Source: Amphiscolops sp. MND2022 (Eukaryota). Taken from it: 64,000 nt of DNA. Positions 19,176 through 61,519 of this stretch are shown piece by piece (within the stretch, counting starts at the first letter, position 1; each line of letters starts with the position of its first letter). The stretch is from contig OZ076420.1 in assembly GCA_964187785.1 (NCBI GenBank), positions 56,730,001 to 56,794,000 on the forward strand. The letters are read 5' to 3'. The notes beneath the pieces are model-generated. The model searched no databases and was not told the DNA's origin. It saw only the letters and a list, made by a program, of their open reading frames with translations. The position numbers and the translations under genes were made by a program.

Positions 19176-19230
19176 CCTGTTGAACACCTCTATAGTTGTT
19201 ATTAGGTGACTTAAGAGCTTTGACGTTTAG

Positions 19231-28285: not shown

Positions 28286-28318
28286 AATTGGCTCAAAGAG
28301 AATGCTTTTGATGAGAAA

Positions 28319-29353: not shown

Positions 29354-29530
29354 GAAACAATCTTTGTAAAAAGAAAAAAACAATGCTTGATGTTGTCCAT
29401 GCTTCTTTTATAATACTTCACTTTGTGTCAATTATCATTTTTCTCCAGACCATCATATTTTTTGCCGAGAATAAACAAGTGTAAAATTAAATGAATCTTC
29501 CGACAATTTTTTCAACCATATCATTTTCAG

Positions 29531-30259: not shown

Positions 30260-30397
30260 TTATATTTTCTGTTGCTCGGCTGATTTTCGTGAAGTCTTTA
30301 AGTTGTGAGGAGAAAACAGCCTATTTCATGATTCTATCAACAAGTATAGCATATCTTTTGCCCAACGCAGATTCCTTCTACAAACCCCTCAAATGAA

Positions 30398-31260: not shown

Positions 31261-31289
31261 AAACAGAGATAACCGAACTTCGTTTTCAG

Positions 31290-32110
31290 TTGGTGAGCCA
31301 ACAACCTTTCTCCTTCCTCAAAAACTTTTCTCCCAGTATGCCAGAACTGAGCAATTCAATGATCACTCTAACTTGCCTGACGCGTTGAAAGAGTTATTCT
31401 GTAATTCCATTCTCTTCTGTTTGCTCTACTTCAGTTTTATATGGCAAGTGTTCTTTTAGTGTAGTTGACCTAGTTTGATTGAGCGTCCTTCATCGCCATT
31501 TCCTCATATCCTTAAACGGTCAATGGAAGAATTTGTCCTCATACCTTTGTCAATTTAGAAAAAAACCTATTAACCAGTATAATTACAAATCGGGGCAATC
31601 AACAGCGCGTGTTGACGATGCTGCATTGAGTTTAGAAGAGAATCCTTCGAAAACAGTGAGCAACTCAGCAAAATTAATTGAAAAAGAAATCGCGTCATCA
31701 CGTAGTACTACAGACAATCCACCTGCAACAAATTTGCTGCAGGACGTGGCAAACTCTGTTGAAGGTCAAGGGTTGCCTGTGAAAAAAAGGCATCGAGCGA
31801 CTGAAGAGAAAACCGCTATGTCGACTCGAAAACCAGGATACCAGGAATTTTGAACCTACTTATCCAGTGTGAAGAAATCACCTTCAAGACATCGACATCT
31901 TCGTTCAACTTATCGTCAGCCAGCGGCTCAGTTGAGGAGTATACCGGTCGTTCTACGGACACAACTTTAGACATTTTAACATTTCTCCGTGACTTGCAAG
32001 TTTATCAGAAGAGAGTTCCTGAAAGTTATTTTCTAGTTTACTGTTCCCCGCGACAAGTCACAATTCTGTTCAGCTTGCCAAAAACCTAATTGTGAACAGA
32101 AATAGTTTGA
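31290..32110 (+). pseudogene. Uncharacterised Polinton ORF between ATPase and integrase
   Basis: Fragments FLLPQKLF..., 31479-31853 and ILTFLRDLQVYQKRVP; position typical of Polinton core genes. Confidence 0.4.
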
Positions 32111-32162
32111 GTCACATTATAAACAGAAACGTGCATCAACAAAGATTGCCGCAACATCCCTG

Positions 32163-33182
32163 ATGACTCCATCAAAATCAGATGACCGACCATTGTCGGA
32201 AACGGAATATAGAAGACTTCATGGTATATACACATCTCCTTCAAATCCTGCTGCTTTTGGTAGTGTTAAGAACTTAGTGAAAGCGAGCGGCCTACCGAGA
32301 AAAAAGTTTTGGCTTATCTACAAAGCTCACCAACTTATACCAAATTCAAACCTCCACGCCGACGTTTTCAGCGGCTCCCTGTTATAGCCCTCGGAATCAA
32401 TCATATTTGGTCCCTTGATGTTGCTTACATGGAAAAACTGCAAAAGTTCAACGATGGTTACAAATACTTGCTTCTTGCAGTTGATGTTCTCTCTCGAAAA
32501 ATTCGAGTGCAACCTTTGAAAGACAAGACATGATGGCGCTTCTGCACTGAAAAAAAATGATCAATTTTGACAAACTTGATTTTCCAATCAAAATTTGGGT
32601 TGCTCAAGGCAAAGAATTTCAAGGTGAATTCGCAAAATTTTGTTCCAACAACGCTACAGAAATTAATCACAGTTACAGTGAGACCAAAATTGCATGGCTG
32701 AAAGATACATACGAACCCTGAAATTACTCCTACACAAATTTTTCGAAGAGCGTCGAACTTTCAGATACATCTTACTTTTGCAAAAGTTTGTTGAATTGGT
32801 TAATAACAGGTATAACCGATCCATTGGCATGGCAGCGAGTAGAGTTACACAACGAAAGGTTCCAAAATTGCTCGCTCTGCAAATAGCCAAGTTAGAAACG
32901 AAGACCAACCAGGCTGCTAAACGTTTCAAGGTAGGGGATCGTGTTCGTATCGCGCTCAAAGTTATGCCATTCGGCAAAAGATATAAGCAACAATACACAA
33001 GTGAAGTATTCAAAATTGTCAAGGTACATCAGTACAAGAAGGATCCCGTCACATACAAACTGCTTGATTCTGACACTGAACATATCTTAGGCCAATTTTA
33101 TCAGCCCGAGCTTACTCATTTCAAATATTTACAAAATCGCAGTCAGTCGCGTCATCAAAGAATTTTGTTCCAATCTATTTGA
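32163..33182 (+). pseudogene. int: Polinton retroviral-like (RVE/c-int) integrase
   Basis: YTSPSNPAAFGSV; WSLDVAYM; YKYLLLAVDVLSRK; WVAQGKEF; AERYIRTLK; FKVGDRVRI; YTSEVFKI; GQFYQPEL. Confidence 0.93.
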
Positions 33183-33288
33183 AAGTGAATACGATAACCT
33201 TAACAATTCAGTAATCACCAAGTACATGCTATTTGCCTACCCAAAGTCAGCTTTCAATCACCGTTTCAATTAAAAACGTTTGAAGACA

Positions 33289-34114
33289 ATGACCGAAAAT
33301 TTCACTGTTACTCTATCATCTAACGCGTCTTCAGACGTGTATCCCACAATCACATTGGCATCTTTCAGAACCTGTTTACCGACAACAATTGAACTGGAGG
33401 GAAAACGGGACGTCGGATTGACAGAGATTACCTATCCTCGAAAAATAAACAATGTGAGAGAGTCTACTTTTGATTTTTATTACCATGTGGGTGGAGAAAA
33501 TGGATAAAAAATTGCATGGTTGGGAGAGGCGTCTATACAGACATTGGACAGATCATTGAAGAGATGAACAGAGGCATTCATTATACACGGGGTGTGTGGA
33601 ATAAGGAACAGTTTAAAAAATATTTCAGATGGAAAATCGACCTTGAGGGCAAATTCATGCTGAATTATCAAGATACCGTCAAATTTGCTGCCATGTCATC
33701 CGATCTCTTTCACATTCTCGGATGTAAGCAGGTTACAACTCCTTGGAAGCATCCACCCCTCTATCATGACATGCCATCACATTTTCCTGTAGACATTCAT
33801 CATTGGCATCAAAAATACGTGTACGGGGACTTTATTGAGCAACAATTTGTTGGCAACAGTTGAGCTCCACTCCTGAACACATTTCATCTATTCAACCCAC
33901 AACAAATGCCACCAAAGGAGGAGGAAGAGAAACCTGGAGGCTCCTTCGGGTATGGCGCCTGCTCTTTTGTGTCCTTCCCCAACCCAACATTCAAAATTGT
34001 TTCGAGAAACTGATTGACATACTCATTGAATTGCGCACCGACACAGGAGATTTGGTGCCTTTCATTGGTGTCGGCCGCACGACTGTCACATGTTTCTTTC
34101 GTCGAAAAAACTGA
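33289..34114 (+). pseudogene. Minor capsid (penton-like, single jelly-roll) protein
   Basis: FTVTLSSNASSDVYP..LASFRTCLP..IELEG...VGLTEITYP; YVYGDFIEQQFVGN; IELRTDTGDLVPF. Confidence 0.85.
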
Positions 34115-34296
34115 GCTTTCTTTTGTTTTTTTTAGGTAACAATTTTTTTACACTATTCGAATTATCTCTTTCCATTTTTCCCAAATCGTTTGCCCCAAAA
34201 CAGTTGTATGTGGAATTCTCGGTCTCTCTTTGAGTTTTTAGAGCAACTCCTGAAAGAAAAATTCAGTTGCCTCCCCAATAATCCTGGTCGAACCCA

Positions 34297-34839
34297 ATGT
34301 CTCGAACATCGTCAGGTTCCTTTTCCAATCACAACCGAGTACATCCCACGAATATGAATTATTTCCAAGGATCACCATATCGACAGTGTGGCAGTGGCAT
34401 AGGTGCAGCAATTAAAGCCGGTCTTAGAGGTTTTGTGATACCTATGTTCAAACGGTATGGCCTTCCTGTGGCCAAATCGTTTCTGACTCAAACTGCACCT
34501 GAAGTCCTCAATATTTTAGATCGGACTACCAAGCCGAAAACTGCCATGGAAAATGCCGTCAAAAAGACCATTCGTCAGCAGATTGGCGGTGGTCGGGAAG
34601 GACAAAAAAGAAAACCGTGTCAAAAAACAAGAGAAAAAAGACATCAAAGAAAAAAAGACCATCGTTTGCAAAATAAAATAAGTCAAATCGTTGATTTCGA
34701 AAAACGCACATCTTCGAAAAAATCGAAGAAAACATTTAAGAAGCAACGCTCCCAGGAACCAGCTGGTAAACGCCACAAGAAAACAAAATTTAAAAAAAGT
34801 CGTCAAGACTTTTTTGCATCCATTGCTGATCACGCGTAA
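34297..34839 (+). CDS. Basic core/DNA-condensing virion protein with adenain-type cleavage sites
   Basis: RQCGSGIGA..G..GF.IP.FK amphipathic segment, QIGGG-R site and Lys/Arg-rich tail; located between penton and MCP. Confidence 0.7.
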   Translation: MSRTSSGSFSNHNRVHPTNMNYFQGSPYRQCGSGIGAAIKAGLRGFVIPMFKRYGLPVAKSFLTQTAPEVLNILDRTTKPKTAMENAVKKTIRQQIGGGREGQKRKPCQKTREKRHQRKKDHRLQNKISQIVDFEKRTSSKKSKKTFKKQRSQEPAGKRHKKTKFKKSRQDFFASIADHA

Positions 34840-34951
34840 CTAACCCTATACAGAAACAATTTGATGCACTTGAAACAATTACTTTGCTGACCAGTTGCCT
34901 TTGATATTCATCTTTTTACTATTAGTAGTTTCTCGTGTTTCATTTTACAAA

Positions 34952-36274
34952 ATGCCCGAGACATTTATTTACTCAGAACCACCGACACCGGGAATGCACT
35001 CCGGTTTGTCTTCATTTGGGGCATCCGACATACTAGTCGACTTTCAGCGAGGATATCATGAAGAAGTATTCACCCCCAAACAGTGCTGACGGGCCCGTGT
35101 TGGAATTTGACTTCCAGGGATCCAAGACTGAAATTGGTGGCACAGAGATAGATTTGGTCAATTAATTTTTGAAAATCGATGTCAAAGTGAATTATACCGG
35201 AAAAGAAACTGAAGCCGACTTTGAAATAGACAAGAAACCCGTTTTTGTCAAAGATTTGATGCATAGTCTGTTTCAAAACGTAGAAATTTCTTTGAACGGA
35301 GCACCTGTATCTTCAGCAAACACTTTATAACCCTACAAGGCATTGGTCGGGGCAGAACTGTCGCGTAACGCTTCTTGTGAAGAGGGCTGGTTGCGTTTCC
35401 AGGGATATCAAATTGAAGATAATACTGGTGACGTGTCAGATGAAGCCTTTTCCAACCGTAAAAAGCTCGGGGAGAAACTTACGTCAAGGTGGACTTTATA
35501 TGGGCGGTTTGCTGATAGCTTTCTAGCAGACAACCACAAGTTCTTGCTGCCTGGAGTTGAGGTACGAGTCAAACTATATCGAGCGCCAGATCAGTTTGTT
35601 ATGATACACAGCGATGCTTCGAAAGACTCACAAGGCGATTTTTCTATTCAAATTGTCAGTGCCTCGCTACTAGTACACAAGCTAGAGTAAAAAAACGAAA
35701 CTTACTTGACAATTGAACGAATGTTGTAGGGAAAAGCAGCTTATTTTGAATTTCGAGAAACAGTTCCGAAATCTTTCCGCATTTCTTCTGGAGAAACAAT
35801 GTATTACCGAGATGACATTTCAATCGTGCCCCCATCAGTCGAATAGTTTTGTTCATGGTTCCCGAAACAAGTTTCAGCGGGAATTTTGAGACGAATCTTT
35901 TCCATTTTCAACAAGTGGATCTTGAAGTAGTTCGCTTGAATCGAGAAGGAGCGCTTGTTGGCGCAACACCGATGCACTTGAACGACAATTTGGTTAGTTC
36001 ACACTATAACACGCTCAAATCTTTGGACTTTGAGCATGGAGAGAATAGAATAACCTTAGACAACTTTGGCGATCATTTCTGTCTCGTGTTCGAACTCACT
36101 GCCGATTGTCATATAGAAGACAACACAATTCGTCCAGAACTCACTGGCGCACGACTGGGGCTCAAGTTTTCGAAAGCTGTTTCGAAACCAATTCGTCTCC
36201 TTGTGTTGGGTGAGAGGCGTTCCGTCGTGCTGGTCGATCGCAATCGGGAATTTATCAAGAATTCGAGCAATTAA
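34952..36274 (+). pseudogene. Double jelly-roll major capsid protein
   Basis: GPVLEFDF; MHSLFQNVEISLNG..VS; PYKA..; LLPGVEVRVKLYR..; FSGNFETN.FHFQ; FGDHFCLVFELT. Confidence 0.9.
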
Positions 36275-36275
36275 A

Positions 36276-36757
36276 ATGGTTGACAACACCCAATTGACTG
36301 ACCTAATCAACAAAGACCCGTTGCTGAAATTCAAGTTCCGAGGATGTTTTTCACAAGCCATCTTCCCTAAATTGTTGCCAAATCAGTTTGTTATTGTTAA
36401 TACGGATGCCTCCAACCAATCAGGGGAACATTGGCTACTTATAGCTTCAAAAAACGACAGTATTTTACTGTATGACAGCTTCGGTCGAGCCTTTGAGCAG
36501 TTTTTAGGAGTAATATACAACAAAGTGAACGAATGGACAAAGTCGACCAAACAAAAAAATTCATCAATATATACCAGCTTCAACCATGTTACTACCCGTT
36601 GAAAATGAACTCTGTGGCACATACTGTGTTTGTATTACTCATTTTTTATAGGACTAAGCAATCATTGAAAACAAATGACACTTTATTAGACTTTTCCACT
36701 TTTCCAGCTTATGCCACAGAAGAAGACATTTTGCGATTCATCAGCACTAATTTTTGA
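36276..36757 (+). pseudogene. Adenain-like cysteine (maturation) protease
   Basis: IVNTD...GEHW (His), YDSFG (Asp), LQP (Gln), then LCGTYC (Cys) after a frameshift. Confidence 0.92.
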
Positions 36758-45000: not shown

Positions 45001-45399
45001 ATGTTATGAAGTACCTGATATGAGACAAATGAAGTACCTGACAAATGAGCAACAATGTAATAATGTTTGGGTGAATTTTTCAATTAGCTTTTTTTCCCAG
45101 TCAACATAGTGAGAATGGTTGAAACCATGGAGAAAATAGAACTTGTGTCTAGGATTAAAATCCAAATTTGTTTTTTTTTTGTGTTTCCGCTGCGTTTTTG
45201 TTGAGGGTTTCAAAACTAGGAATTCTACAGTCACATTAATTGACCGGGATATTTTGGGCTGATCAGATGCTAAACCTGAAACCGAAAAGCACTTCAGATT
45301 TAGAAAACCTAGTATTTTGTGGTAATACTATTTTGGCGTTTAATCGAGGAGAATAATTCTTGTATTCGAGGAAATATTCTTATTCATTGCGCCACTAGT

Positions 45400-46450
45400 C
45401 ACAAAATAGATATCCTACCTGGCTCCAAGCCGAGAAAATTACCGAATGGCCGCACGCCCTTGCACTACAAGGAAGATTTGCAAGAAAAAACATGCCTTCT
45501 TGGATAAACAACTCATCGAACCCTGTCATAGTCCATACAGCGCACCGGCAATGCTCGTACTGAAAAAAAGTGGCAAGCTACGTTTGGTAATAGATTATAG
45601 ACAATTGAACAGTCAAACGATAAAGTCCTGTTGGCCGATACCGTCGATTGAAGAAATTTTCGACACGCTTGAGGGAAGCGCGTTCTTCTCAACAATCGAT
45701 ATGTCTTTCAAATACCCATGGATGATAAAAGTCTGGATTATACGGCTTTCAGCACGCCATTTGGTTCCTTCAAATGGCTCCGAATGTCAATGGGTCTTTC
45801 GAACAGTCCGCCTACGTTCCAAAGTGTAATGGAAATAGTTCTTCCAAAGTTGATCTGGAACACTGTGGTCCCCTATTTAGACGATTGTATCATCTTTGCG
45901 GCCACACCCGAAGAACATCTCCGTAGGATTCGAGAAGTCCTAGTCCGGTTCCGAGCAGCGAAGCTGAAAATTAATCCTCTGAAATGTGAGTTCTTTAGAA
46001 CAAAAGTACAGTTCCTGGGCATGTCATCAGTAAAGATGGTCTACAGGTGGAACCCGAGAAAATCGCTGCTGTCAAACAGTTCCCAGTTCCGACAATACAA
46101 ACTTATGTCGAATCCTTTCTGGGACTTTGCTCGTATTATCGACGATATGTGAAACATTTTGCCAATATTGCTAGACCACTCCATAAGGCCAGCGAGACGA
46201 GTATCCCATTCAAATGGACACCCGAAGCACAAGAGGCTTTCGACAAGTTGAAGGCCTGCTTAACTACAGTATCAATTTTAGCTTTTCCTTCTATGAAAGC
46301 CGTTTATTCTGTACACCGACGCTAGTTTTTCGGCAATGGGTGCAGTCTCAGCCCAAATTCAAGACGGAAAGGAACGAGCTAGTTGCTATGCCTCCAAGGC
46401 TCTCACAATCTCAAATGAACTACTCAGCAATTAAACGTGAACACCTGCTT
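45400..46450 (+). pseudogene. pol: Gypsy reverse transcriptase and N-terminal half of RNase H
   Basis: SPYSAP..KKSGKLRLVIDYRQLN; TAFSTPFG.F.W.RM.MGL.NSP.TFQ; YLDD; KCEFF..KVQFLG; FLGLCSYYRRY; LYTDAS; YSAIKRE. The second half of RNase H is missing. Confidence 0.95.
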
Positions 46451-46660
46451 TGTTCGTCTCAGAAAAGCACCAACTGGCGGGGATCGCTCGATAAGGGGAG
46501 TGGCCTAATGCAGGTGTTACAATGACATACCGCCCGCGCCGCTCCCCTTCCGGAGGATGTCTTACAACACCCAATTTCCCAGTGTAGGGTGATCAAATCC
46601 AAGCCATCGGAACCCCTAAAACGACAGGAGGTACTCGTAGAAAGGGCAACGGAACCAACG

Positions 46661-47070
46661 AAGTACGCCGAGATAAAGGGAGACTTGTTTGAATCAAAGG
46701 ACTCGATAGCCCATTGTGTCTCCGCGGTTTTCAAAATGAGTTCTGGGATAATGCGGTCTTGCAAACAGAAATACCCAACTGCGTATCCGGGACGAATTCG
46801 CTGTTATGATGTCCCTCTGTGGACGCAGTGGCTACCAGAAACCAAGAGGTATATTTACCACCTCCTGACGAAAAATCATTTTTACCATATCCGACATTTG
46901 CGGCTCTTCGAGCGCCGTTGGAACGTATGCGCGAACATGCCAAAGCAAACGGCGTGTCATCGATTAGCATTCCTCAACTTGGTTGTGGACTCGACAAATT
47001 GGAGTGGCCCTTGGTACGCGACATTATGCAAAAAATTTTTGAAACCTCGGGTGTTTACATCCGTGATCCA
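46661..47070 (+). pseudogene. TARG1/OARD1 (Poa1p-like) macrodomain embedded in pol between RNase H and integrase
   Basis: IKGDLF..SIAHCVS..FKM..GI; YIYHLLTK; PTF..LR..LE.M..H...NGV..IS.PQLGCGLDKLEW..V..I..KIF. One frameshift near 46875. Confidence 0.9.
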
Positions 47071-47099
47071 ACCACAACTGTTTCGAACAATGATGAAAG

Positions 47100-48450
47100 C
47101 GCAATTGACGAAGTGTCCGATACAGAGACCGGTAATCTCACCGAAAACCTCCGCAAAGGACAGGAGGCTGATGAATGGTTACGACTGGTACGCGAGTGCG
47201 TACGACGAGGCCGCGTACTACGAAATAATGACCTAAAGGGTTGTCCCGAGCTCGCTTGGAAACTGTATACCCAATTTCACAGTCTGTACCTCATAAATAA
47301 TGTACTGTGTCAGCGATTTGAACCCATCGGTGGCGATTTACCGTTCCTCCAACAAGTAGTGCCTCCTGCACTGGTAGATGATGTCCTGGTATCTCTACAC
47401 AGTTCAACCACTGGCGGTCACCAACGAGTTGCCAAGCTCCTTGGAAAAGTGAGACAGCGCTTTTGGTGACCCGGTCTCAAAGATTACGTGCAAATTTTGT
47501 GCGCCGTTACGTCGAATGCCAAAAGCGATGTAATCCTCCACAGACCCATCGCCATTCTCTCGTTGAATGGAAGCAAAGCTACAATTTTCAGCACATTGGC
47601 ATCGGTTTCATGGGTCCTCTACTGGAATCAAATGGCAATAAGTTCATTTGTTTTTTTTGGTGACCATTTTAATGAGTCAATGAGTGGTTTTAATGAAAAG
47701 GTATGAGGCAATTCTTTACCGGGTCAGAAAGCAACAACTACGGCCTCGGCTTTAATCGAGCATTGGATTTCCCGATTTGGATGCCCTCACAGTATCCACA
47801 GTATTCAGGGCAGAAATTTCGAATCGCACCTTTACAAAGACTCTGCAACTTTTAGAAATTGAGAAGACAGGGATTTCAGCATTTCATCCGTAGTCTAACG
47901 CAGTGATTGCGCGTAAGAACCGCACTCTGCAAAACATGCTCGCGAATGTGTGGATGAGGATCCATGAAATTGATCGACCAAACTGCCGTACGTTATGATG
48001 GTCTATCGCTCGTCTGTGCATGAATCGACCTGCTTTTCTCCGTAGTTTCTCGTGCAGGGACGGGAATTGGCCCTCCCAATTGACGTTATGTATCCCAACC
48101 CTAATCAGGGACCACTGATGACCCCAGTCGATTTTGTCTACAATCGTAAGAAGGCCTTCCAACGGGCCTTCGAATTAGTTCGCGCTCACCTTAATCATAA
48201 CCAGAAGCGCCGCAATGCATTGTATAATCAAAACATTCTTGGACCCAAATATGAGACAGATCAAAAAGTCTTGTTGCATAACCTAGCGTTCTCTGTCGAC
48301 CAAACATCAAAGCTTTCATCTCCGTGGCGCGGGCCCTACATCATTCTAGATTGTCTGAATGATGTCACGTACAAAATTCGCCAACTTACAACTAACACGG
48401 AATCAGTCGTACACTATGACCGTTTGAAGCCTTTCTTTGAAACACCAGAT
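47100..48450 (+). pseudogene. pol: Gypsy integrase with zinc finger remnant and GPY/F module
   Basis: LHSSTTGGH...RQRFW; IGIGFMGP; RFGCP.SIHSIQGRNFES; NRTL; GRELALPID; KLSSPWRGPY; VVHYDRLKPF. Confidence 0.92.
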
Positions 48451-49035
48451 TCCTTCAACGTTCCTACCCGAGCTACTCGGGACCCGGCTCCTCAACCACT
48501 CAACTCTAACGTCCCGACTCGCAGCGTAAATAATTCTGAACCTTCTCCTGATTATCGCGACCACAGTGCTTGTTGCTATTTTCAGCAGATACCGATGGCT
48601 TTTTCTATGCCATCTGTCTCTCCCACCACCCCTACCGTACCCCGTACTTCGCGCACTCCGCATTCACCTAAGGCACCAATTACTCGCAGTGCCGCCTCGC
48701 CGGTCCCGACCGCAACGACCGATCCCCAGGCATCGCCATCGACGCCGATAACAACCCCTCTTTTGCCTTTTCCACTACTACTAAGACTACTACTGTGCCA
48801 TCGGGCACTGTCCATACTCGCGCTTTTATTGAACGAGCAGCGGATAACTTACGGCGTACTGCTGGCCACTCCTACAATCTCCGGCCTAGCATACGTGACT
48901 AACGACTGGCACACCCACTTCATGAAGCCTCAATTCCAAACAATTTAGTTAACCACCAGTACCCACGAACAACTGATCAGACCCGCCAGCCTCGCAAGCG
49001 CTAGCGTCTAGCGTTTCAGACATTTCCCAATCAAC

Positions 49036-51259
49036 ATGCGTCCTCATGCCATTTGGGTTGTGTGTCTTATTATTATAGACATTCCTCTCTCGTGTGATCA
49101 GGTTCAATTCAGTCCTCATCTCGATGATAACCTGGAACAACCTGTCTTCGAAAAGGGTGCTGCTTTTGTATTCAAATATCAAGCAGTTACCTCTGAAAGT
49201 GAGAGTAAGGTTCGTGTATTTTCCCCTTTTCCTCAGATGTCTGCCATCAACCTCACTCGTGCCCTCTCCGATGTAGAGGCCTTTAAAACAAAACCCCGTG
49301 GCATCGGCTCCTTGTACGTTAACAAACGTTGCGAATTCACGGACTTTAACAACACTTACCCGTCAATCTAATACCTCCTCCTCTAGCAACTAGAAACGCG
49401 GGTCAGCTTTTTGCAGATGGAACTAGCAGCTGCTCAAGAGGAGGAAGTCACCTTGATGGAAGTGGCAAAGTCATTTATTCCTCCTACTCCTAATAAAGAA
49501 TGTGAACCTAAGCGCCAACGTCGTGCTAATGGGGCTATCGCTGCAATAGCAGCTGGAGCGGGAATGATTCTGGGTGAACCCGTCAAGGAAGCAGCGTGCA
49601 CCGCGCTCTCTATCTTTAATCTATGTCGCAATGATGATGCCCTGTCAAAAGATGTAGATCAGTCATGACTAAACAGACGACAATAATTGAAACACTGCAA
49701 CGTGTACAAAGTCGAAATGATAAAAACTTCTTCTTACTGGGAAATGAAATCAGGAACACCCAAGAGAGCGTGAAGAATCTCAGAGATAGTGTGGGACAAC
49801 GCTTTCAGCACATTGAATATTACTTAGATACTTGATGGGAAGAAGTCTAGATTGCGATAAAGTAATAGTAGGACATATTAACCTTTTGCAATATATTCGT
49901 AACTATATTTATCATCTGTGTACCCTGTATACTCATTTAGAAGTCATCCCGCGCCGCTTTTTACGCCTATCGTAATTGGCTCTTCACGACAATTTCATCT
50001 TTAGCTGGTGGCTACATTACACCACAGTTTCTGCTTCCGCAACAAATTACTGAAATTTTTTAAAGAGTTGACCGAAGACGAAGTTCTGCGGGGAACTAAT
50101 ATGTCTCCTGCATTCCGCCCTGGTTTTGAGGCAATATACTAAGAGATTCAAATAGTTCTCGAGATAACTCTGATACCTCGTGGCATCTCAGTGATACTGG
50201 GGATCCCGATGAATTCAACATCGTCAACATTTGATATCACTGGACCCACTGTATCAGCCCAATAACGACCAGAAAACGGCTTCTCTTTTCAGTTTCACAA
50301 ATCCTTTCCTCGCAGTCTCTACTGCCAATAGTAGATTTGCAGAGCTAGGAGCTAATAAGCTGCAACAATATTCGTGTAACAACAGAATAAAACTTTGCAG
50401 GAAGGGCATTTCTACTACCACGGATGAAACCTTGTTATTCCTGGGCTCTCTATTCTATAAATATGATATGCCAGCCCTGCGCAGTTGCAAAGTTAAATCC
50501 GTTCTGTTGCCGGATGCTCCTCAAGCCTTCTATTTGGCCGAAGAGTTGTACCACATCAGCTCTAGAGCCCCTTTTCTTCAGATAAAGAACGATAGTCGAG
50601 CTAAAGGCCTGTCTATCTCTACCATAAATTGTCAGGCTTGTGTGATGCGCCCCAGTTGTTCTAGTATTATTTCATTTATTCAAGGGGACCTCGTTTTGTA
50701 CCCAGATATGGATTTTTGTGGAAAGAATACCAAACCTTCTCTGACATCCATTGAATTAACTCCTTCACCTAATAAGGTCTTCTCGCATGTTCCATCAATT
50801 AGTACCGCTGATTTTCATGCTTATTCTCTCCGGGAAGCACGTCAACCCGTCCTAAGAATTTTACGCCTGGAACTAGCTGAGCTACCAGACGACGAACACA
50901 TGACTGAGGAAACCCTCGACAAGTTGACGCAACCAATTGCTACCTACTACTCAGCAGTCTCGCCAGCCACGTCAGCAGCCTTGGAATCTTATCTGCCCAT
51001 TCGAACAGCTATTCTTATGTCGACCCTGTCGATTACAATGTCACTGTTAACATTTTCGATAAGCCTCACGCACTTCCCACGACAGTGGCGCCGCCTCTTT
51101 ACTCATCCACAGAAGTTCTTTCGTGGTCATTCAGGACGCTTCATCTACATTGTCGACGACCAATGCTATGACTACGAACCAATTGATCCAATTTTTGCGT
51201 ATCTATGGAGCTACTATGGAGCTTCAAGCAATTATTTCCCTGGCACGAGAAACAATTAA
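49036..51259 (+). pseudogene. env: Envelope glycoprotein, class I fusion-protein-like
   Basis: Signal peptide; furin site RQRR (49513-49524) followed by ANGAIAAIAAGAGMILG; heptad region; Cys-rich region; C-terminal TM ILMSTLSITMSLLTFSISL. A few stops and frameshifts. Confidence 0.85.
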
Positions 51260-54200
51260 ACAACCTATCGCTCCTAACTCGAACTACACTACACCTAAAG
51301 CACCTTGTCTCCCCCACGTGTTTACCCGGATGTGTCAGCCCGTCAGTTTTCGGAAACAATCACTTAAATTTAACCTTCTTTCTGTCTTTCTATCAATGTC
51401 ATCATTTGTTTTATTTTCAGCAAACTAGAAACACTCAACTCAGTTGATGAAATAGGATAGGCTCTAACCTTGTTCGAAATCTCCCAACGCTTGCGTTGGT
51501 GTTAGTCTCAACACTTTCTAGTGTGTAGCCCATTCTCTTGTATACTTAATTTGAGGACGTCCCTCAACCTTGCTCACCTATTGTGTTGATCATCCAGTTA
51601 GTATGTATCTTTCTAGATCATCACGAGTATCCTAGTCTGTATTCCCTGTAGCTAGTGTAGTTAATAAGGTCAACGTCTCCTAGTTGTTGAGTATAACAAC
51701 TAGTGAACTTAATTTCCTCACTCTCGAGGTGACGTCCGTGTCGTCCGATGTCAACCCACAACGTCAAACAGTCATGATCCAAACGATTAACTCCAATGAA
51801 CGTCCTCTTGGTAAAAATGCTACCGAACTATGGTTGCCTGCCCCGTCCAAATCGACTATTGCAGCCGATGTGAACTTCGACCCAGTCCCTATGGAGTGCA
51901 ACTGTCCATCAGCAGTGCCACCCCCAGTGCACCCGGATATGGTTGATGCGACTGTGGAGGCCTCCTTAGGGCAGAACGAGAGTCTTGAGTTACTGGCAGA
52001 AGACTTCAGCTCAATACAAGAGCTCAAAAATCAACTTGAAGAAGCTCAGAAGGCGTCTGATGTCACGTTTTCAGTTTCACAAATCCTTTCCTTGCAGTCT
52101 CTACTGCCAATAGTAGATTTGCAGAGCTAGGAGCTAATAAGCTGCAACAATATTCGTGTAACAACAGAATAAAACATTGCAGGAAGGGCATTTCTACTAC
52201 CACGGATGAAACCTTGTTATTCCTGGGCTCTCTATTCTATAAATATGATATGCCAGCCCTGCGCAGTTGCAAAGTTAAATCCGTTCTGTTGCCGGATGCT
52301 CCTCAAGCCTTCTATTTGGCCGAAGAGTTGTACCACATCAGCTCTAGAGCCCCTTTTCTTCAGATAAAGAACGATAGTCGAGCTAAAGGCCTGTCAATCT
52401 CTACCATAAATTGTCAGGCTTGTGTGATGCGCCCCAGTTGTTCTAGTATTATTTCATTTATTCAAGGGGACCTCGTTTTGTACCCAGATATGGATTTTTG
52501 TGGAAAGAATACCAAACCTTCTCTGACATCCATTGAATTAACTCCTTCACCTAATAAGGTCTTCTCGCATGTTCCATCAATTAGTACCGCTGATTTTCAT
52601 GCTTATTCTCTCCGGGAAGCACGTCAACCCGTCCTAAGAATTTTACGCCTGGAACTAGCTGAGCTACCAGACGACGAACACATGACTGAGGAAACCCTCG
52701 ACAAGTTGACGCAACCAATTGCTACCTACTACTCAGCAGTCTCGCCAGCCACGTCAGCAGCCTTGGAATCTTATCTGCCCATTCGAACAGCTATTCTTAT
52801 GTCGACCCTGTCGATTACAATGTCACTGTTAACATTTTCGATAAGCTTCACGCACTTCCCACGACAGTGGCGCCGCCTCTTTACTCATCCACAGAAGTTC
52901 TTTCGTGGTCATTCAGGACGCTTCATCTACATTGTCGACGACCAATGCTATGACTACGAACCAATTGATCCAATTTTTGCGTATCTATGGAGCTACTATG
53001 GAGCTTCAAGCAATTATTTCCCTGGCACGAGAAACAATTAAACAACCTATCGCTCCTAACTCGAACTACACTACACCTAAAGCACCTTGTCTCCCCCACG
53101 TGTTTACCCGGATGTGTCAGCCCGTCAGTTTTCGGAAACAATCACTTAAATTTAACCTTCTTTCTGTCTTTCTATCAATGTCATCATTTGTTTTATTTTC
53201 AGCAAACTAGAAACACTCAACTCAGTTGATGAAATAGGATAGGCTCTAACTTTGTTCGAAATCTCCCAACGCTTGCGTTGGTGTTAGTCTCAACACTTTC
53301 TAGTGTGTAGCCCATTCTCTTGTATACTTAATTTGAGGACGTCCCTCAACCTTGCTCACCTATTGTGTTGATCATCCAGTTAGTATGTATCTTTCTAGAT
53401 CATCACGAGTATCCTAGTCTGTATTCCCTGTAGCTAGTGTAGTTAATAAGGTCAACGTCTCCTAGTTGTTGAGTATAACAACTAGTGAACTTAATTTCCT
53501 CACTCTCGAGGTGACGTCCGTGTCGTCCGATGTCAACCCACAACGTCAAACAGTCATGATCCAAACGATTAACTCCAATGAACGTCCTCTTGGTAAAAAT
53601 GCTACCGAACTATGGTTGCCTGCCCCGTCCAAATCGACTATTGCAGCCGATGTGAACTTCCACCCAGTCCCTATGGAGTGCAACTGTCCATCAGCAGTGC
53701 CACCCCCAGTGCACCCGGATATGGTTGATGCGACTGTGGAGGCCTCCTTAGGGCAGAACGAGAGTCTTGAGTTACTGGCAGAAGACTTCAGCTCAATACA
53801 AGAGCTCAAAAATCAACTTGAAGAAGCTCAGAAGGCGTCTGATGTCACGTTTTCAGTTTCACAAGTCCTTTCCTTGCAGTCTCCACTGCCAATAGTAGAT
53901 TTGCAGAGCTAGGAGCTAATAAGCTGCAACAATATTCGTGTAACAACAGAATAAAACTTTGCAGGAAGGGCTTTTCTACTACCACGGATGAAACCTTGTT
54001 ATTCCTGGGCTCTCTATTCTATAACTATGATATGCCAGCCCTGCGCAGTTGCAAAGTTAAATCCGTTCTGTTGCCGGATGCTCCTCAAGCCTTCTATTTG
54101 GCCGTAGATTTGTACCACATCAGCTCTAGAGCCCCTTTTCTTCAGATAAAGAACGATAGTCGAGCTAAAGGCCTGTCTATCTCTACCATAATTTGTCAGG

Positions 54201-55290
54201 CTTGTGTGATGCGCCCCAGTTGTTCTAGTATTATTTCATTTATTCAAGGGGACCTCGTTTTGTACCCAGATATGGATTTTTGTGGAAAGAATACCAAACC
54301 TTCTCTGACATCCATTGAATTAACTCCTTCACCTAATAAGGTCTTCTCGCATGTCCCATCAATTAGTACCGCTGATTTTCATGCTTATTCTCTCCGGGAA
54401 GCACGTCAACCCGTCCTAAGAATTTTACGCCTGGAACTAGCTGAGCTACCAGACGACGAACACATGACTGAGGAAACCCTCGACAAGTTGACGCAACCAA
54501 TTGCTACCTACTACTCAGCAGTCTCGCCAGCCACGTCAGCAGCCTTGGAATCTTATCTGCCCATTCGAACAGCTATTCTTATGTCGACCCTGTTGATTAC
54601 AATGTCACTGTTAACATTTTCGATAAGCTTCACGCACTTCCGACGACAGTGGCGCCGCCTCTTTACTCATCCACAGAAGTTCTTTCGTGGTCATTCAGGA
54701 CGCTTCATCTACATTGTCGACAACCAATGCTATGACTACGAACCAATTGATCCAATTTTTGCGTATCTATGGAGCTACTATGGAGCTTCAAGCAATTATT
54801 TCCCTGGCACGAGAAACAATTAAATAACCTATCGCTCCTAACTCGAACTACACTACACCTAAAGCACCTTGTCTCCCCCACGTGTTTACCCGGATGTGTC
54901 AGCCCGTCAGTTTTCGGAAACAACCACTTAAATTTAACCTTCTTTCTGTCTTTCTATCAATGTCATCATTTGTTTTATTTTCAGCAAACTAGAAACACTC
55001 AACTCAGTTGATGAAATAGGATAGGCTCTAACTTTGTTCGAAATCTCCCAACGCTTGCGTTGGTGTTAGTCTCAACACTTTCTAGTGTGTAGCCCATTCT
55101 CTTGTATACTTAATTTGAGGACGTCCCTCAACCTTGCTCACCTATTGTGTTGATCATCCAGTTAGTATGTATCTTTCTAGATCATCACGAGTATCCTAGT
55201 CTGTATTCCCTGTAGCTACTGTAGTTAATAAGGTCAACGTCTCCTAGTTGTTGAGTATAACAACTAGTGAACTTAATTTCCTCACTCTAG
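50286..55290. repeat. 1782-bp tandem triplication (env 3' half, spacer, fragment of the post-env ORF)
   Basis: ttttcagtttcacaa at 50286, 52068 and 53850 (offsets 1782, 1782); scattered SNPs between copies. Confidence 0.95.
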
Positions 55291-55472
55291 AGGTATCCTA
55301 GTTGTGTCACAACCTCAGCTAGTGTAGTGAAACAAAAGTCCCAGTTCCCCAGTTGTATCTCCAACGCAACTGGTGTGTCAACGCCGAAAGTCACTCGTAC
55401 GCTCTATCAGCCCAACGTCTCGAGCGTTATTCAAATACATCTTCTCAACTATATCTAAACACATGCACCCTT

Positions 55473-56491
55473 ATGGCAGGCGTTTTTAATGATCTGTTTT
55501 GTTACAGGTACAAATTTGACGTCGAGGTCGTGCCTCCAGCTCCATTGCTGCTCTCGGATGGGCGGGTACACTATCTGGCCCGTGCTCACACCGTCCGTAT
55601 GTTAGATGTAATGGACTACCGTGTCATCCGATGTAACCCACAACGCCAAACAGTCATGATCCAAACGATTAACTCCAATGAACGTCCTCTTGGTAAAAAT
55701 GCTACCGAACTATGGTTGCCTGCCCCGTCCAAATCGACTATTGCAGCCGATTTGAACTTCGATCCAGTCCCTATGGAGTGCAACTGTCCATCACCAGTGC
55801 CACCCCCAGTGCACCCGGATATGGTTGATGCGACTGTGGAGGCCTCCTTAGGGCAGGACGAGAGTCTTGAGTTACTGGCAGAAGAGTTCAGCTCAGTACA
55901 AGAGCTCAAAAATCAACTTGAAGAAGCTCAGAAGGCGTCTGAAGTCACGTTCAAACTGATGCAAGCAAGTGTAGAGATAGGTAGTCAACGGGCGGAGCGC
56001 ATTACGGCTCTGTACCAAGAAATAGGCGGTTTGAAATCCCGATTGAAAACCCTTACGGAAGAAAACGAGTCGCTACTCCACCACTCATTGAAGCAGAGTG
56101 ATGAACTAAGCACCTTACGACTGGAAACAGCGGCCGCCAGCAATCATCAGTTAACCGCCAAAATGCTTTGTTACCAGATGTCTACCTACCGCCCTCAGTG
56201 GACTACGTTGACAACAACCTCGTGTTCTATCTCCTGTGTAGACCGCCAACCTCAACAACTGACGAATTGAAGGAAAATGCCCGCCACTTGCTGCGGTTGA
56301 TCCACCCGGACAAAAACCCCACTGTCTCCCCAGCGGTCGCCAAACTGGTGCAGACGATCACAGAAGCTCGTAATATACTGATAGACAAGACTCTCAACAG
56401 GATTTATCAGTGTTGTGGGATTCGAGGTGTCCGACGTGCGCAAAAGGGCCTAAGGACTTGCATGGACTGCGACCCGCATGTCCGCGAATAG
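55473..56491 (+). pseudogene. Post-env accessory ORF: Pro-rich region, coiled coil, then DnaJ (J) domain; one frameshift near 56160
   Basis: ELKNQLEEAQK..LKSRLKTLTEENESL coiled coil. TTDELKENARHLLRLIHPDKNP...ITEARNIL.D...R.Y..G follows the J-domain helix pattern, with HPD at 56303-56311. C-terminal CxxC. Confidence 0.8.
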
Positions 56492-56522
56492 CTGTCCTCT
56501 TAGTTGCGTGGACGCAACCTTC

Positions 56523-56536
56523 AAGAGAGGGGGTGG
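56523..56536 (+). promoter_or_regulatory. Polypurine tract
   Basis: aagagagggggtgg immediately before TGTAGCG; preceded by hairpin gttgcg-tgga-cgcaac. Confidence 0.85.
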
Positions 56537-56629
56537 TGTAGCGAGCGAGGCACCGCTATAGGAGGAGCGAAAGGCGAATAAAAGAGCAGATGCAAACTGG
56601 GAAATTAAATTGTTAAACAGCTCGCTATT
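56537..56629 (+). repeat. 3' LTR remnant (very short or internally deleted)
   Basis: Starts TGTAGCGAG, has AATAAA near 56577, and ends ctcgcta (inverse of the start) at 56621-56627. Confidence 0.6.
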
Positions 56630-56939
56630 TATTATTTCTTAGCACAAGTTGTTTATCATTTATTGTTCTCGAGAGTTCTCGAGAGAGCAATATAATGGTT
56701 TTAAAATATTAATGCCCTTTTGTGCAGCTTAACAGCAGCACTTCAGTCATACTGTGTGTGTATTATTAATTAACTTGAGGCGCTTTTTAAATTTATATAA
56801 AAGACTTATTAAAGAAAGAATGAAAATTGGAGACAAATTTCCTCCTCACTCCTTACTGGTGCAGATTCTCTGCCTGCATTCCCCTGCTGTGCAATATAAT
56901 TAAAAAAGATGCAGATTCAACAAAAAATATTTAGACGAA

Positions 56940-57560
56940 TTTTAAAAGGAAGTTTAAATTCATTCAATTCCTCAGCTACTGAAATGTAAGTTTGTTTGTA
57001 ATTTGTAACTAAAAGTAAAATCCTAAAGTTGTTCTAAGCCGAATTTTTCTTAACAATTTTGTTATCATAAATTGACTAAATTTACTTTTAAATTTCTTTT
57101 CTCAAGAAATTTATAGAGAAAACCTAAGAACCAAAAACACCCACAATCGCCCCTACGCATTCAAAATTCCAATAAAATTGATTGAGATATATACAAAGAA
57201 AGGCGATTGTCAAATACTAAAACTTTAAAACCGAAAACGAGTTTGAGAAAAACACTCGATCATACACAACCCTAACCGCTGAGATGTAAGTTGCTTTCTA
57301 TAACATAAATTTTCATCTTAAAGTTTATCTTAAGTCGTCTAACTAAACTGTTAATTTCTTAAATCTATTTGTTTCACTAAAGATAACTAAACTTTTTCTT
57401 CGTCATAGATTGACTATCTCTTTTTCAAAGAAAAATTTTTCAAAAATTTTACAGAGGTAACCCAGCTACCAACACACCAGCAATCGCCCTGCGCATTCGA
57501 GCCATAGCAAAACAAACAAAAGTATTGAACTAATAAAACAAACGATTGTCAAACACCTTT
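56940..57560. repeat. Old degenerate duplication of about 310-335 bp
   Basis: ctga.atgtaagtt near 56979 and 57280; caatcgccc.t.cgcattc near 57146 and 57481; cgattgtcaaa near 57204 and 57544. Confidence 0.5.
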
Positions 57561-58147: not shown

Positions 58148-59053
58148 TCAAGCAATATGAGAAGCAGCTGCCAGTTTGGGAATCTGTGACTTCAAGGATC
58201 CCTTCCGTTTGTACTCAAACGACTCCCGCTTCAACTGCTGGCTGAGTGACTCTGAGCTTTTGGCCTTGGCTGCGTTGTCCAGAGATGCCGGAATCTCTGC
58301 TGGCTCCTTGCTGTCTCTGGGTCTGGGAATTCCAGACTTCGCAATCATTTTTGGAATTCCGCTGGCAGAATTGGATGATTTCAAATAGTAGCCACAGTTG
58401 CTGGATGCTGCATTGCCACAACTTTCTTGGTTTTCTCCGGGCTTGTTGGCTAGACTGGCGTTTTGTGACTTGATAACAGTAGTTGAACTTTGGGGAGAAG
58501 GTGCAACTGATAAAGGCGCGAAAGCTTTTGTGGGTGACTTTTTCTCAACGGGAGAATCGAAGGAATTCCCAGAAGGAGGTAATTTGGGAATTTTACTGTG
58601 CCGCCTTTCTGGAATTCGGGAAACTGGTGGACTTTTTCCGGGAATTTCAGGAGTTTTGTTGGCACTACGATTAACATTCCTATCATTATTGTTGTTGTTG
58701 TTTTCACTTGGTTCTGATTGGGTTTCGGAATGAATTCCAGAGGGCTTTTTATCAATTGTCGATGATGTAACACCATTTGGGGCATCTTTTGTAACTTCTC
58801 CAGAGGATTTCTGAGATGAATGAGGAGATGAATGTTTGTAGTCGCACTGATTTTCGTGATTTGAAGTAACATGATTTGAGTTTATTTGATGATGATCAGA
58901 TTTGGTTTCAAGGGCGGGTTGTGATTGTATCAAAATCTGCTCCTCTCCACATGCACCGTTCTGTTCTATGTTTTTCTCTCCTAGTAAAAGCGACACTCCG
59001 TTCGTTAGTTGGACGTTAGTTTCATCCACACAATTCACCGCAAGGTCATTGTC
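58148..59053 (-). CDS. Terminal coding exon of a host gene; disordered Ser/Pro/Lys/Asn-rich tail with five SxIP motifs (EB1-binding +TIP candidate)
   Basis: Open frame from acceptor (ctttcatcatttcttttAG on minus, exon start 59053) to stop at 58148; SRIP, SKIP, SGIP, SGIP, SQIP. Confidence 0.8.
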   Translation of the reverse strand, partial: DNDLAVNCVDETNVQLTNGVSLLLGEKNIEQNGACGEEQILIQSQPALETKSDHHQINSNHVTSNHENQCDYKHSSPHSSQKSSGEVTKDAPNGVTSSTIDKKPSGIHSETQSEPSENNNNNNDRNVNRSANKTPEIPGKSPPVSRIPERRHSKIPKLPPSGNSFDSPVEKKSPTKAFAPLSVAPSPQSSTTVIKSQNASLANKPGENQESCGNAASSNCGYYLKSSNSASGIPKMIAKSGIPRPRDSKEPAEIPASLDNAAKAKSSESLSQQLKRESFEYKRKGSLKSQIPKLAAASHIA

Positions 59054-59142
59054 CTAAAAGAAATGATGAAAGTGAAGCAGAAGAATTTAGAGATGAATTT
59101 GTCGCAACGAATATGGTGCCGTGCATTGTAGCAATCTAACTA

Positions 59143-59857
59143 CCCTGGTTGAGAATGAATGCATACCTTGCAAGGATCTTGCAAGAACCTTGCAAAAAAC
59201 ACATGCCTTACAAGATCTTGCAAGGAAATTTTTGAATTCTTGAATTCAAGGTTCTTGAATTCAAGGTCTTGAATTCAAGGTATTTCATACTGAGACATTG
59301 TTATAACGTAGTCATGATTTCAGTATAATGTCAAAAACGTTAATAACTATTGTTTCATTAGGGCTATTTAACAAATTGAAACAATTTCATTGAATAAATT
59401 ATGCATGGCCTAAGTTTAACTCATTAACCAGTACATAACACTAGTTATCCGAAAAAAATTTCAAAATTCTTTGAAACTGTATTTTCAATGTTCCGTCACT
59501 GAAATATATTATTACTATTTCCATAACTTCGCCAAGATCACACTTCTAGATGGTTTCTAGAGTTTGCAGCTTTTTGGTTGTTGAATCTCCGAGTAAATAA
59601 TCGCAGCTTCTGATATCAATCTGATAGTCACGATGCTGTAGTCAATTTGAAACTAATAAACAATAAATATAACAAATAAACATTTTAATGTCAAGAATAA
59701 TTTCATGAAATTTTCCTCCTTGAAAGAATCTTTCAAGGAAATTTTTCCGTTGCAAGATACTTGCAAGATGTCTTGCAGAAAAATACATTAACTTGCAAGA
59801 TCTTGCAAGAAAATCTTGCAAGATCCTTGTAAGGAATGCATATTTTTCCAACCAGGG
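59143..59857. mobile_element. MITE with TIRs and probable TA target duplication, in the host intron
   Basis: TA|ccctggttgagaatgaatgcataccttgcaaggatcttgcaaga ... tcttgcaagatccttgtaaggaatgcatatttttccaaccaggg|TA; internal CTTGCAAG and CTTGAATTCAAG palindromes. Confidence 0.85.
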
Positions 59858-61519
59858 TAATCAATTGGTAGTTTTAAAGCGAAGGAAATGAAGGACTCGT
59901 TTGTCTGCTGTGGAAAATTTTAAAAAAATATGGAAATGACAGAGAGAAAACAGGTAATTTAGGGGTCTTGATATTAGAATTTGAGAAAATGCGTGATTCA
60001 AATGTTTTTCAGTGAGGAAAAGTGTTTCAATTTTCTTTTATTTAGGGCAACAGTCAACGAATTAACAGGGTGTAGGTTTAAAAGCATGATAAGCAGTTGA
60101 TTATTTCACTTGCAAGTTTTTACCAGTATAAGCAAATATGTAAAGCTATGATAAACTGAAAGTGAGACGGTAAGCTTTGAAAAAGATCTTATTTCATTCT
60201 ATCTAAACTTCTAGTTCAGCTGCTGCTAAATGGGATACAGGATACCATCTGTTTCGACGTATTAACCTCGACAGTCCACCGAGAAGTCAAAAAATTGACA
60301 AAAATTTGGCAAAACTTTTTAAAAGCTTCATTTCCCCAGGAGTAATAACCACAGTTCAAATCGGGTTACTAGAGTGGGACAGTAACTTAGCAAACAGTTG
60401 CTCAGAGAAAAGGCCATTTTTCTGAAATGTAATATTTTGCAGTTTTTCACTTTTTTCCAGTTACTTTTTTTGCTGGTGGTTCAAAAAACAAACTATATTG
60501 ACACAAATAACAACTAGCCCCAGATAGTCCAAAAGATTGTCGATACGAAAGACAATATTTCGTTTTCCTATACGCTTTTTTCGTTTGATAATTTTTTATT
60601 GATTGCAAAAAAATTGCTGTCTTCATTTCCTCATTCGAGGACAAAATCACTGTCGAGCTTAAGACAACTGTGAACATCAAAATTAATAGCGTCTCATTTC
60701 CAGTTACCATTTTTAATTACTGAAAAAAGTTGGAAATAGAAAAAACTTTTTCGATGAGATCAAGAGATGGGAGTGTGATTAATGTCGTTTAATGTCTATG
60801 ATGAAAAAGGTTCAATAACGGCACTTACCCTGCATTAACTAAGGAAGATGTTTTTGCATTTCATCTTCAACGGACGCGGTGGAGGCGGTAGAAAGAAAAA
60901 TTATTACAAAAGCGTATTTCATTTTAAAATACTCTTAGTGAAAAATCTTTGACAATTCAGGCACAATAATGAAAACTTGCATTCAATTTCTGTGTTTACA
61001 AGAATAAATAAGATTATCATAGATCCGCACTTAGTGAACCATTTTCTGTAGGGTCTCGCAGTTTTTCGAAAAAAGGTTTGAAACTGTCCTTTCAAGTTTT
61101 TACGCTCCCTGCTTGCACTTTTGACGTATTGTGAGTTGGCGAGCTAATTTATTCATTATTTTTCCATAGAACTAACAAGGAAACTTGCTTGCATTAAAAT
61201 ATTTCTGACTGAATTGACTTTCATCAAGGTGCCTAAAAATGCATCCTAAATTTGGCGGCAATTCAGAGCAATAGAATTTTACAAGTTCTACTATAGATTT
61301 ATTTACAATTTTCAAATCCAGCTGAGACCTTTCCAACTTCAGTTGTTCCATAGATTTCAAAGTACAGTCAAATTCAACGTACAATTTGACTGACGGTTAT
61401 TACATAAGTTGAATATTAAGAAACAGAAGTGTGAAAACAACGTGATCGAGACGGTGAAGAAGTAAGGAACGTTTCAGTTTTGATTGAAATAGTGGAAGCT
61501 GCATTTTAATCCTACAAAA

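Follow-up and report, generated by a model that had tools for sequence, protein, structure and literature searches.

A decayed Ty3/gypsy element of Amphiscolops sp. and its intact relatives: a macrodomain in Pol and a J-domain gene behind env

The window analysed here is a stretch of 64,000 nt from Amphiscolops sp. MND2022 (contig OZ076420.1, positions 56,730,001 to 56,794,000, forward strand). On its + strand, from ~45390 to ~57554, lies the remnant of a long terminal repeat (LTR) retroelement, whose features are collected in Table 1. An initial annotation had listed reverse transcriptase (RT) with RNase H (RH), a macrodomain, integrase (IN), an env with a furin site, a coiled coil, a J-domain, a polypurine tract (PPT) and an LTR on a single + strand element. 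These are recovered by Pfam, motif or sequence analysis, although RNase H is present in this copy only as a remnant. The end given for the element (56629) falls short of that of the 3' LTR. The tandem triplication of a 1782-bp unit had not been mentioned. The locus had also been interpreted as an infectious Gypsy lineage with one module countering ADP-ribosylation and another recruiting Hsp70; the observation is partly confirmed and this interpretation partly supported.

Table 1 Features of the retroelement copy in the window
Feature	Position	Strand	Evidence
Decayed pol remnant (mid-RT, RNase H, macrodomain, integrase, Pro/Ser/Thr-rich tail)	45390..49007	+	Pfam, identity to intact copy, 17 indels
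TARG1/OARD1-type macrodomain, between RNase H and integrase, over two frames here	46670..47070	+	Motifs; intact relative versus human TARG1
env, first copy, complete but broken	49020..51259	+	Sequence, intact 788-aa relative, hydropathy, Baculo_F E 3.6e-5 (below cut-off)
env parts: predicted acceptor AG, ATG, signal peptide, furin site RQRR, fusion-peptide-like stretch, transmembrane segment	AG 49018-49019; ATG 49036; RQRR 49513	+	
1782-bp unit present three times in tandem, with the 3' part of env, the spacer and 315 bp of ORF4; third unit continues into full ORF4	50286..55631	+	
env-ORF4 spacer, 3' end with pyrimidine tract and CAG predicted splice acceptor	54826..55507	+	
ORF4: KOW/Tudor-like barrel, linker, coiled coil, J-domain (HPD 56303), CC..CxxC	55508..56491	+	
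Polypurine tract	56523..56536	+	
3' LTR	56537..57554	+	BLASTN to LTR of intact relative; donor scan

Scanned frame by frame with Pfam, the window copy yields RT (RVT_1, E 1.4e-21), a partial RNase H, a weak Macro match, integrase (H2C2 and p58_C) and DnaJ (E 1.9e-7, which exceeds the cut-off), all in separate frames. Macrodomain motifs are legible at 46679 (GDLF), 46862 (LLTK) and 46981 (GCGLD), with a further motif at 46709. The element starts part-way through RT; gag, protease and a 5' LTR are absent from the whole 64-kb window. Compared with a natural intact relative it carries frame-breaking indels in pol (17), env (7) and the fourth open reading frame, ORF4 (a single one, between the coiled coil and the J-domain), and there are stop codons too. 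The pol remnant is 80-87% identical in nucleotide sequence to the intact copy at G000:C9:45.0M. The three 1782-bp units are 98.8-99.7% identical to one another. The 3' LTR is ~1 kb long and has two predicted AT^GTAAGT splice donors (56986 and 57286; ^ marks the cut), compared with one in a related intact LTR. The window copy is a dead, decayed member of a recently mobile family. The spacer between env and ORF4 had been described as structured. This was rejected: neither in the window (z -0.46; 7 of 20 shuffles fold as well) nor in an intact copy (z -1.74; 6 of 100) does it fold better than shuffled sequence.

Intact family members, which the initial annotation had suggested seeking together with module co-occurrence and per-module selection, exist in the source genome. 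A search of this genome with the J region gives at least 116 matches among 150 scored candidates, and gag, pol, env and ORF4 are all open in 7 of 25 elements examined. The elements measure 12.5-13.5 kb with LTRs of 650-780 bp, and intact copies have the order LTR, primer-binding site (PBS), gag, pol, env, ORF4, PPT, LTR. Intact elements encode a Gag of 409-449 aa, a Pol of 1598-1646 aa and an Env of 788-808 aa, with pol overlapping gag in the -1 frame. Pfam analysis of two intact Pol proteins gives the domain order protease (PR)-RT-RH-macrodomain-IN. The PBS is complementary to the end of a host tRNA-Leu(CAG), and 4-bp target duplications are legible at most flanks of intact relatives. The family has moved recently, since the LTR pairs of the seven elements with four open frames are 99.6-100% identical and these frames are still open.

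The LTRs, PBS, PPT, target duplications, PR-RT-RH-IN order and Ty3-like RT identify the element, at the level of sequence, as a member of the Metaviridae (Ty3/gypsy). In a best-match test (not a tree) the RT is closest to Ty3 (E 4e-82, versus 4e-56 for the next entry and 4e-35 for the MLV type). Placement of the RT in a tree, also proposed initially, is less firm: our RT tree is composed of own-genome and unlabelled rows, has weak deep nodes and includes three rows from unrelated flanking elements. Retroviridae have a retroviral-type RT and that of the element is Ty3-like; the element is not a retrovirus, but its layout is like that of complex retroviruses.

The family comprises at least six subfamilies (A-F). 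Relative to subfamily A, their RTs are 71-86% identical and their ORF4 proteins 27-53%. Macrodomain, env and ORF4 occur together in 24 of the 24 elements that retain RNase H and integrase; these were chosen via J or env matches, which leaves the macrodomain and env counts as the only ones free of circularity. The reverse test, which is not circular, finds ORF4 downstream at all 66 env sites of the family. In the search tables a J match lies within 8 kb at 53 of these and at 18-31 kb at three; at the remaining 10, the fetched sequence scanned with the profile contains ORF4 or its remnants directly after env. One stretch (C2:11.37M), fetched from the wrong side of its element, was excluded from the counts, and two C10 stretches were tallied as a single interrupted element.

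Selection was estimated as the ratio of nonsynonymous to synonymous substitution (dN/dS) by a pairwise counting method. For one pair, the intact and the window copy, this gives 0.10 for RT, 0.23 for the macrodomain, 0.16 for env, 0.145 for ORF4 and 0.11 for its J-domain, with 0.52 for the low-complexity tail. Between two lineages of subfamily B the ORF4 value is 0.16 over 356 codons. Comparisons among subfamilies A, B and C mostly have saturated dS, and dN/dS was taken from closer pairs. It could be supposed that a dead element merely carries both modules as neutral passengers or has captured them once; one-off insertion was the outcome that the initial annotation had named as fatal to its interpretation. 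The heavy decay of the window copy and the existence of other Gypsy families of this genome without either module would fit this. However, both modules are ordered and fixed in position in at least six subfamilies with saturated synonymous sites, their dN/dS of ~0.1-0.25 indicates purifying selection, their motifs are conserved and they have relatives in other assemblies. Selection, co-occurrence and the env-site counts led us to reject the passenger explanation, which we consider extremely improbable, and we are close to certain of the four-gene architecture and of selection on its modules.

In intact Pol the macrodomain follows RNase H and precedes the zinc finger of integrase. Pfam scores it below cut-off, while the domain of an intact relative matches human TARG1 with E 2.4e-30 and a DarG-type entry with 5e-5. 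Lys84 and Asp125, the catalytic dyad of TARG1 (PMC9411070), are retained in 32 and 31 of 35 locus rows, respectively (two rows are duplicates). TARG1 removes ADP-ribose linked to Glu/Asp and to DNA; the latter modification is placed on single-stranded DNA by PARP1 (PMC11102865). The domain is predicted to be a TARG1-type ADP-ribose hydrolase. A macrodomain tree was built in a quick version with no outgroup, and no direction of capture is claimed. For the region from RNase H to integrase, the ESM Atlas returned only matches below 0.9.

A macrodomain search of the genome (997 candidates, 150 scored) is dominated by a separate, non-autonomous family, M. All nine fetched copies have one frame of 834-929 aa that joins a Gag-like region, a protease and a macrodomain, and none has an RT or integrase of its own; LTRs of ~2 kb flank eight of the nine. 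An example is L071:2917-10000 (G000:C3:50.31M; ORF L071:5186-7687, ~834 aa), and ~100 loci match the family M protease at 76% identity or more. The M macrodomain retains the catalytic pair, with dN/dS of 0.11-0.37 in seven of eight pairs. Thus the macrodomain is selected even when joined to Gag-protease alone, which fits a role inside the particle. The M LTR is 89-90% identical to that of family G (L143, L144), an autonomous gag-pol family that lacks macrodomain, env and ORF4. Distant env-bearing Gypsy families (family V; L091-L102, L114-L116) have an env ~24% identical and a 3-kb gap between pol and env, and neither macrodomain nor ORF4.

The intact env encodes a signal peptide and an RxRR furin site, directly behind which comes a hydrophobic stretch rich in Gly/Ala, then long helices, a Cys-rich part and a transmembrane segment, as read from sequence and hydropathy. 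By this anatomy (signal peptide, furin site, putative fusion peptide, transmembrane segment) the third ORF is an errantivirus-like env, perhaps of class I/F type, and the family may be infectious through env-bearing particles. A profile search of the PDB with env gave no meaningful match. The structure model has a mean predicted local distance difference test (pLDDT) score of 39.7 and a fold search on it is not usable; its rows (viral glycoproteins, among them two baculovirus F proteins) have a TM of ~0.1 on this failed model and were set aside.

The ORF4 model has a mean pLDDT of 78.6. In it a barrel of five to six strands (residues 11-70) is joined by a disordered linker to a helix of 80 residues (130-208); the J-domain (238-312) follows, and the tail carries CC..CxxC. 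The barrel matches the SPT5 KOW domain best (Z 7.9, root-mean-square deviation (rmsd) 2.1 A, 62 aligned residues) and also NusG and Tudor domains (Z 6.6-7.9), which shows an SH3-like fold only. The J-domain matches the fold of J-proteins with Z up to 9.3 (rmsd 2.4 A, 74 aligned), and the HPD motif is present between J helices II and III in all six subfamilies. When the J region was modelled with a cytosolic host Hsp70, the score was 0.74 compared with 0.00 for the best of three controls; HPD sits on Hsp70 residues 390-394, the runs share at least 95% of contacts and the pLDDT of the partners is at least 68. The mark for this model is reached by 51 of 78 solved pairs and by 2 of 108 mismatched pairs. 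ORF4, a J-domain protein by sequence and fold, is predicted to recruit host Hsp70, although the modelled contact could derive from resemblance to J-Hsp70 complexes of known structure.

Relatives of ORF4 are present in other assemblies (142 representatives, E up to 1e-10), and a few of them are ordinary DnaJ proteins; one that was checked is at most 50% identical to anything in this genome. Known viral J-domain proteins do not match ORF4 over its full length, the similarity being confined to the J-domain. The ESM Atlas returned only matches below 0.9, and a metagenome scan with the ORF4 profile gave 25 pattern matches, none confirmed.

The first Met of ORF4 is not conserved and lies anywhere from position 0 to 196 across subfamilies. 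Where the conserved region begins, all six subfamilies have instead a pyrimidine tract followed by YAG^G. This predicted acceptor is always in phase 2, with the codon split after two bases, and relatives of 45-68% identity in other assemblies have the N-terminus 'CFR/VFR' at the same spot. The sequence AT^GTAAGT occurs once per LTR in subfamilies A, B, C and E, at 66-73% of LTR length, where 0.01-0.02 per LTR is expected by chance; AT^GTTAGT was read off the LTRs of subfamilies D and F. The LTRs of the six subfamilies are otherwise unalignable despite this common AT^GT(A/T)AGT. As the LTR AT joined to the acceptor G gives an in-frame ATG, splicing would create the ORF4 start codon, and ORF4 is likely to be made from a spliced RNA in this way. 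Env is also predicted, from donor and acceptor motifs, to come from a spliced subgenomic RNA: its acceptor is followed by G in subfamilies B, C and D and by A, with a nearby in-frame ATG, in A and E. For springer-type elements of Drosophila, env is described as spliced from an AU dinucleotide, which forms its start codon (PMC12992720).

We propose that this is a recently mobile env-bearing Ty3/gypsy lineage that likely works like a complex retrovirus. Full-length RNA would be translated into Gag and Gag-Pol, while the 5' LTR donor would be spliced to the env or the ORF4 acceptor, AT plus G forming the start codon. The macrodomain would be carried into the particle within Pol. There it would strip ADP-ribose linked to Glu/Asp or to DNA, its substrates being RT, integrase, capsid or cDNA intermediates that host PARPs would tag. 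We prefer a particle-borne eraser because reverse transcription makes single-stranded DNA, presumably open to PARP1 ADP-ribosylation. Furin-cleaved Env would let particles pass between cells. The weakest step concerns ORF4. It would act as a non-structural regulator that oligomerises via its coiled coil; the barrel would bind element RNA, chromatin or a host complex on it; and the J-domain would make Hsp70 remodel the bound complex, favouring expression of the element. Taken whole, with particle-borne eraser, spliced Hsp70-recruiting regulator and enveloped spread, this mechanism is in our judgement moderately probable.

A number of observations weigh against this scheme. The macrodomains of subfamily E (L061, L067, L069) have Arg/Glu at the catalytic pair, with a stop in one copy, and GNVL replaces GDLF. 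This macrodomain is possibly a pseudo-enzyme or a reader; since E has lost the catalytic pair, catalysis is not universal in the family. In one decayed copy (L161) the macrodomain is lost by a deletion that also clips integrase; a macrodomain-less subfamily was considered and rejected, as L161 looks like a deletion reaching integrase. One of the eight family M pairs, of very low divergence, has a macrodomain dN/dS of 1.0. Families G and V include many long open frames without macrodomain or J-domain, so neither module is required for Gypsy or env function here. For env, the Baculo_F match (E 2-4e-5) is below the Pfam cut-off and is found in one of eight members. For ORF4, subfamilies C-E retain just some of the basic residues in J helix II. 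The SPT5 KOW match is below the level that the tool regards as distinctive and is tied with Tudor and other SH3-like folds, so the ligand of the barrel is a guess.

The macrodomain could instead be a reader or tether that binds ADP-ribose at PARP-marked chromatin or DNA breaks, guiding integration or repair of the integration intermediate much as chromodomains do for chromoviruses. Its place next to integrase in Pol would suit such a role, as would the exchange of the catalytic pair by a whole subfamily that has kept the domain. On the other hand, Lys84/Asp125 are kept in five of the six macrodomain-bearing groups (A-D and M), and family M joins the domain to Gag-protease without integrase. 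We regard a tether as unlikely and retain the eraser as the preferred function.

A different role may also be envisaged for ORF4, that of a co-chaperone in assembly or trafficking rather than a gene regulator. Gag or Env would be the clients to which it directs Hsp70 when particles assemble, uncoat or are released, and the cysteines behind the J-domain would be lipidated, as in cysteine-string protein, rather than bind zinc. The best sequence match of the J-domain is indeed DNAJC5/CSP (E 1.6e-6), but its lead over the next J-protein (1.3e-4) is small. The N-terminal region of DNAJC5 aligns at Z 8.1. ORF4 accompanies env at every env site of its own family and is absent from the env-less families G and M, yet family V has an env without ORF4. 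The CC..CxxC spacing is fixed across ORF4 relatives, like that of a metal site. KOW/Tudor-like barrels more often bind nucleic acid or methylated peptides, which also speaks against a co-chaperone. A co-chaperone appears to us improbable to about the same degree as the tether, and a regulator that recruits Hsp70 remains our preference.

Two variations in the ORF4 region may be noted. Its tandem amplification has occurred several times independently: threefold in the window (50286-55631) and at C12:47.30M, with at least 10 J fragments at C12:54.71M and several at C5:40.87M (L141; L139-L140; L142). Between L043 and L047 (G000:C4:16.67M and C3:11.09M), ORF4 has a dS of 0.28 and the LTRs are 90% identical, while gag, pol and env have a dS of 0.01; an ORF4-LTR module appears to have been exchanged between sublineages. 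In addition, a divergent ORF4-like frame (~27% identity, DnaJ E 8e-9) lies at L125:1498-2358 on the - strand behind a remnant of an env tail, and the rest of its element was not found beside it.

Several parts of this architecture are already known, namely env-bearing Gypsy elements and spliced Gypsy regulators. The former ('errantiviruses') are widespread in metazoans according to Chary and Hayashi in eLife (PMC13524379). They have in common with the present family LTR-gag-pol-env, a furin site, a fusion peptide, young multi-copy insertions and, in some clades, tRNA-Leu priming. They differ in that no post-env gene is described in the main text, which has no match to 'macro', 'DnaJ', 'accessory' or 'splic'; of the 10 places where the supplements match 'macro', the four displayed are all parts of species names. 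'Pseudo' and 'mini' domains listed there between RNase H and integrase, compared by description, could include an unrecognised macrodomain. The Drosophila springer-subclade iERVs of Senti et al. (PMC12992720) likewise create the env start codon by splicing from an AU donor. Here, one predicted donor would serve two acceptors, those of env and a fourth gene; no accessory gene is mentioned in the portion of that text consulted. That a Gypsy element can encode a Rev-like accessory protein is demonstrated by CERV of Caenorhabditis elegans Cer1 (PMC10309623). As described there, it is a regulator translated from spliced mRNA, which oligomerises through a helical part and also has a Cys-rich loop. 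However, CERV and Gag have a common start, and its domains are of H, M and G-protein-like type, with no DnaJ match in the portion searched. ORF4 follows env and has a barrel, coiled coil and J-domain. The extra genes captured by bdelloid LTR elements (PMC5408684) are also enzymatic; these ORF3s (GDSL lipase, DEDDy nuclease) replace env, whereas here a gene is added after it.

With human TARG1/OARD1/C6orf130 (PDB 2l8r, 4j5q) and bacterial DarG the macrodomain shares its sequence family and the Lys84/Asp125 dyad; here it is known from sequence, is embedded in a retroelement polyprotein and has lost the dyad in one subfamily. Polyomavirus T antigen, baculovirus BJDP and giant-virus DnaJ are virus-encoded proteins with HPD J-domains. 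Like ORF4, they would hijack Hsp70; unlike it, all belong to DNA viruses, and the BJDP and giant-virus entries appear in our search as weak J-fold rows only. No macrodomain or J-domain in an LTR retrotransposon was found in the openly searchable literature, Repbase, GyDB, Dfam and subscription journals being outside the scope of the search. No such element was retrieved by term look-ups in 10.1101/2021.11.30.470311, PMC6338049, PMC4695847 and PMC8120803 either. Database entries for animal retrotransposon polyproteins presumably already include annotated macrodomains, so the J gene may be the newer of the two modules. New here are the predicted splice-made start of ORF4, the putative AT^GT donor in the LTR and the separate Gag-protease-macrodomain family.

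RNA viruses deploy macrodomains to counter PARP-based immunity. An intact-dyad TARG1 domain selected in two Gypsy architectures of one genome suggests that, in invertebrate-type hosts, LTR retroelements too are restricted by ADP-ribosylation. A selected J gene behind env with an apparently splice-made start would be a fourth-gene, complex-retrovirus-like design outside the Retroviridae. Annotation that relies on ATG starts would miss it, as would Pfam, in which the macrodomain scores below cut-off. More broadly, and only tentatively, a lineage of Metaviridae may have evolved a complex-retrovirus organisation independently, in which one LTR 'AT' donor supplies the starts of env and an Hsp70-recruiting regulator. 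Particles would carry an ADP-ribose eraser against a host PARP defence, and family M would supply it in trans to a helper family with the same LTR but no macrodomain. We consider this combination possible but less probable than not.

Other features were noted in the genome and in the window. A tandem array at G000:C8:35.59-35.66M, with a period of ~296 bp, contains a tRNA-Leu-like 3' sequence that has 753 exact matches genome-wide, one other of which is called as tRNA-Leu(CAG). A decayed Polinton/Maverick-like element occupies 19200-36600 of the window. Its fragments of a DNA polymerase B of protein-primed type match with E 4.6e-5, and its packaging ATPase matches Pox_A32 with E 1.6e-7. Beyond the retroelement, a low-complexity open frame of 301 aa with no Pfam match (58148-59053, - strand) is possibly a host exon, and 46-bp imperfect inverted repeats 627 bp apart (59141-59859) resemble a miniature inverted-repeat transposable element.

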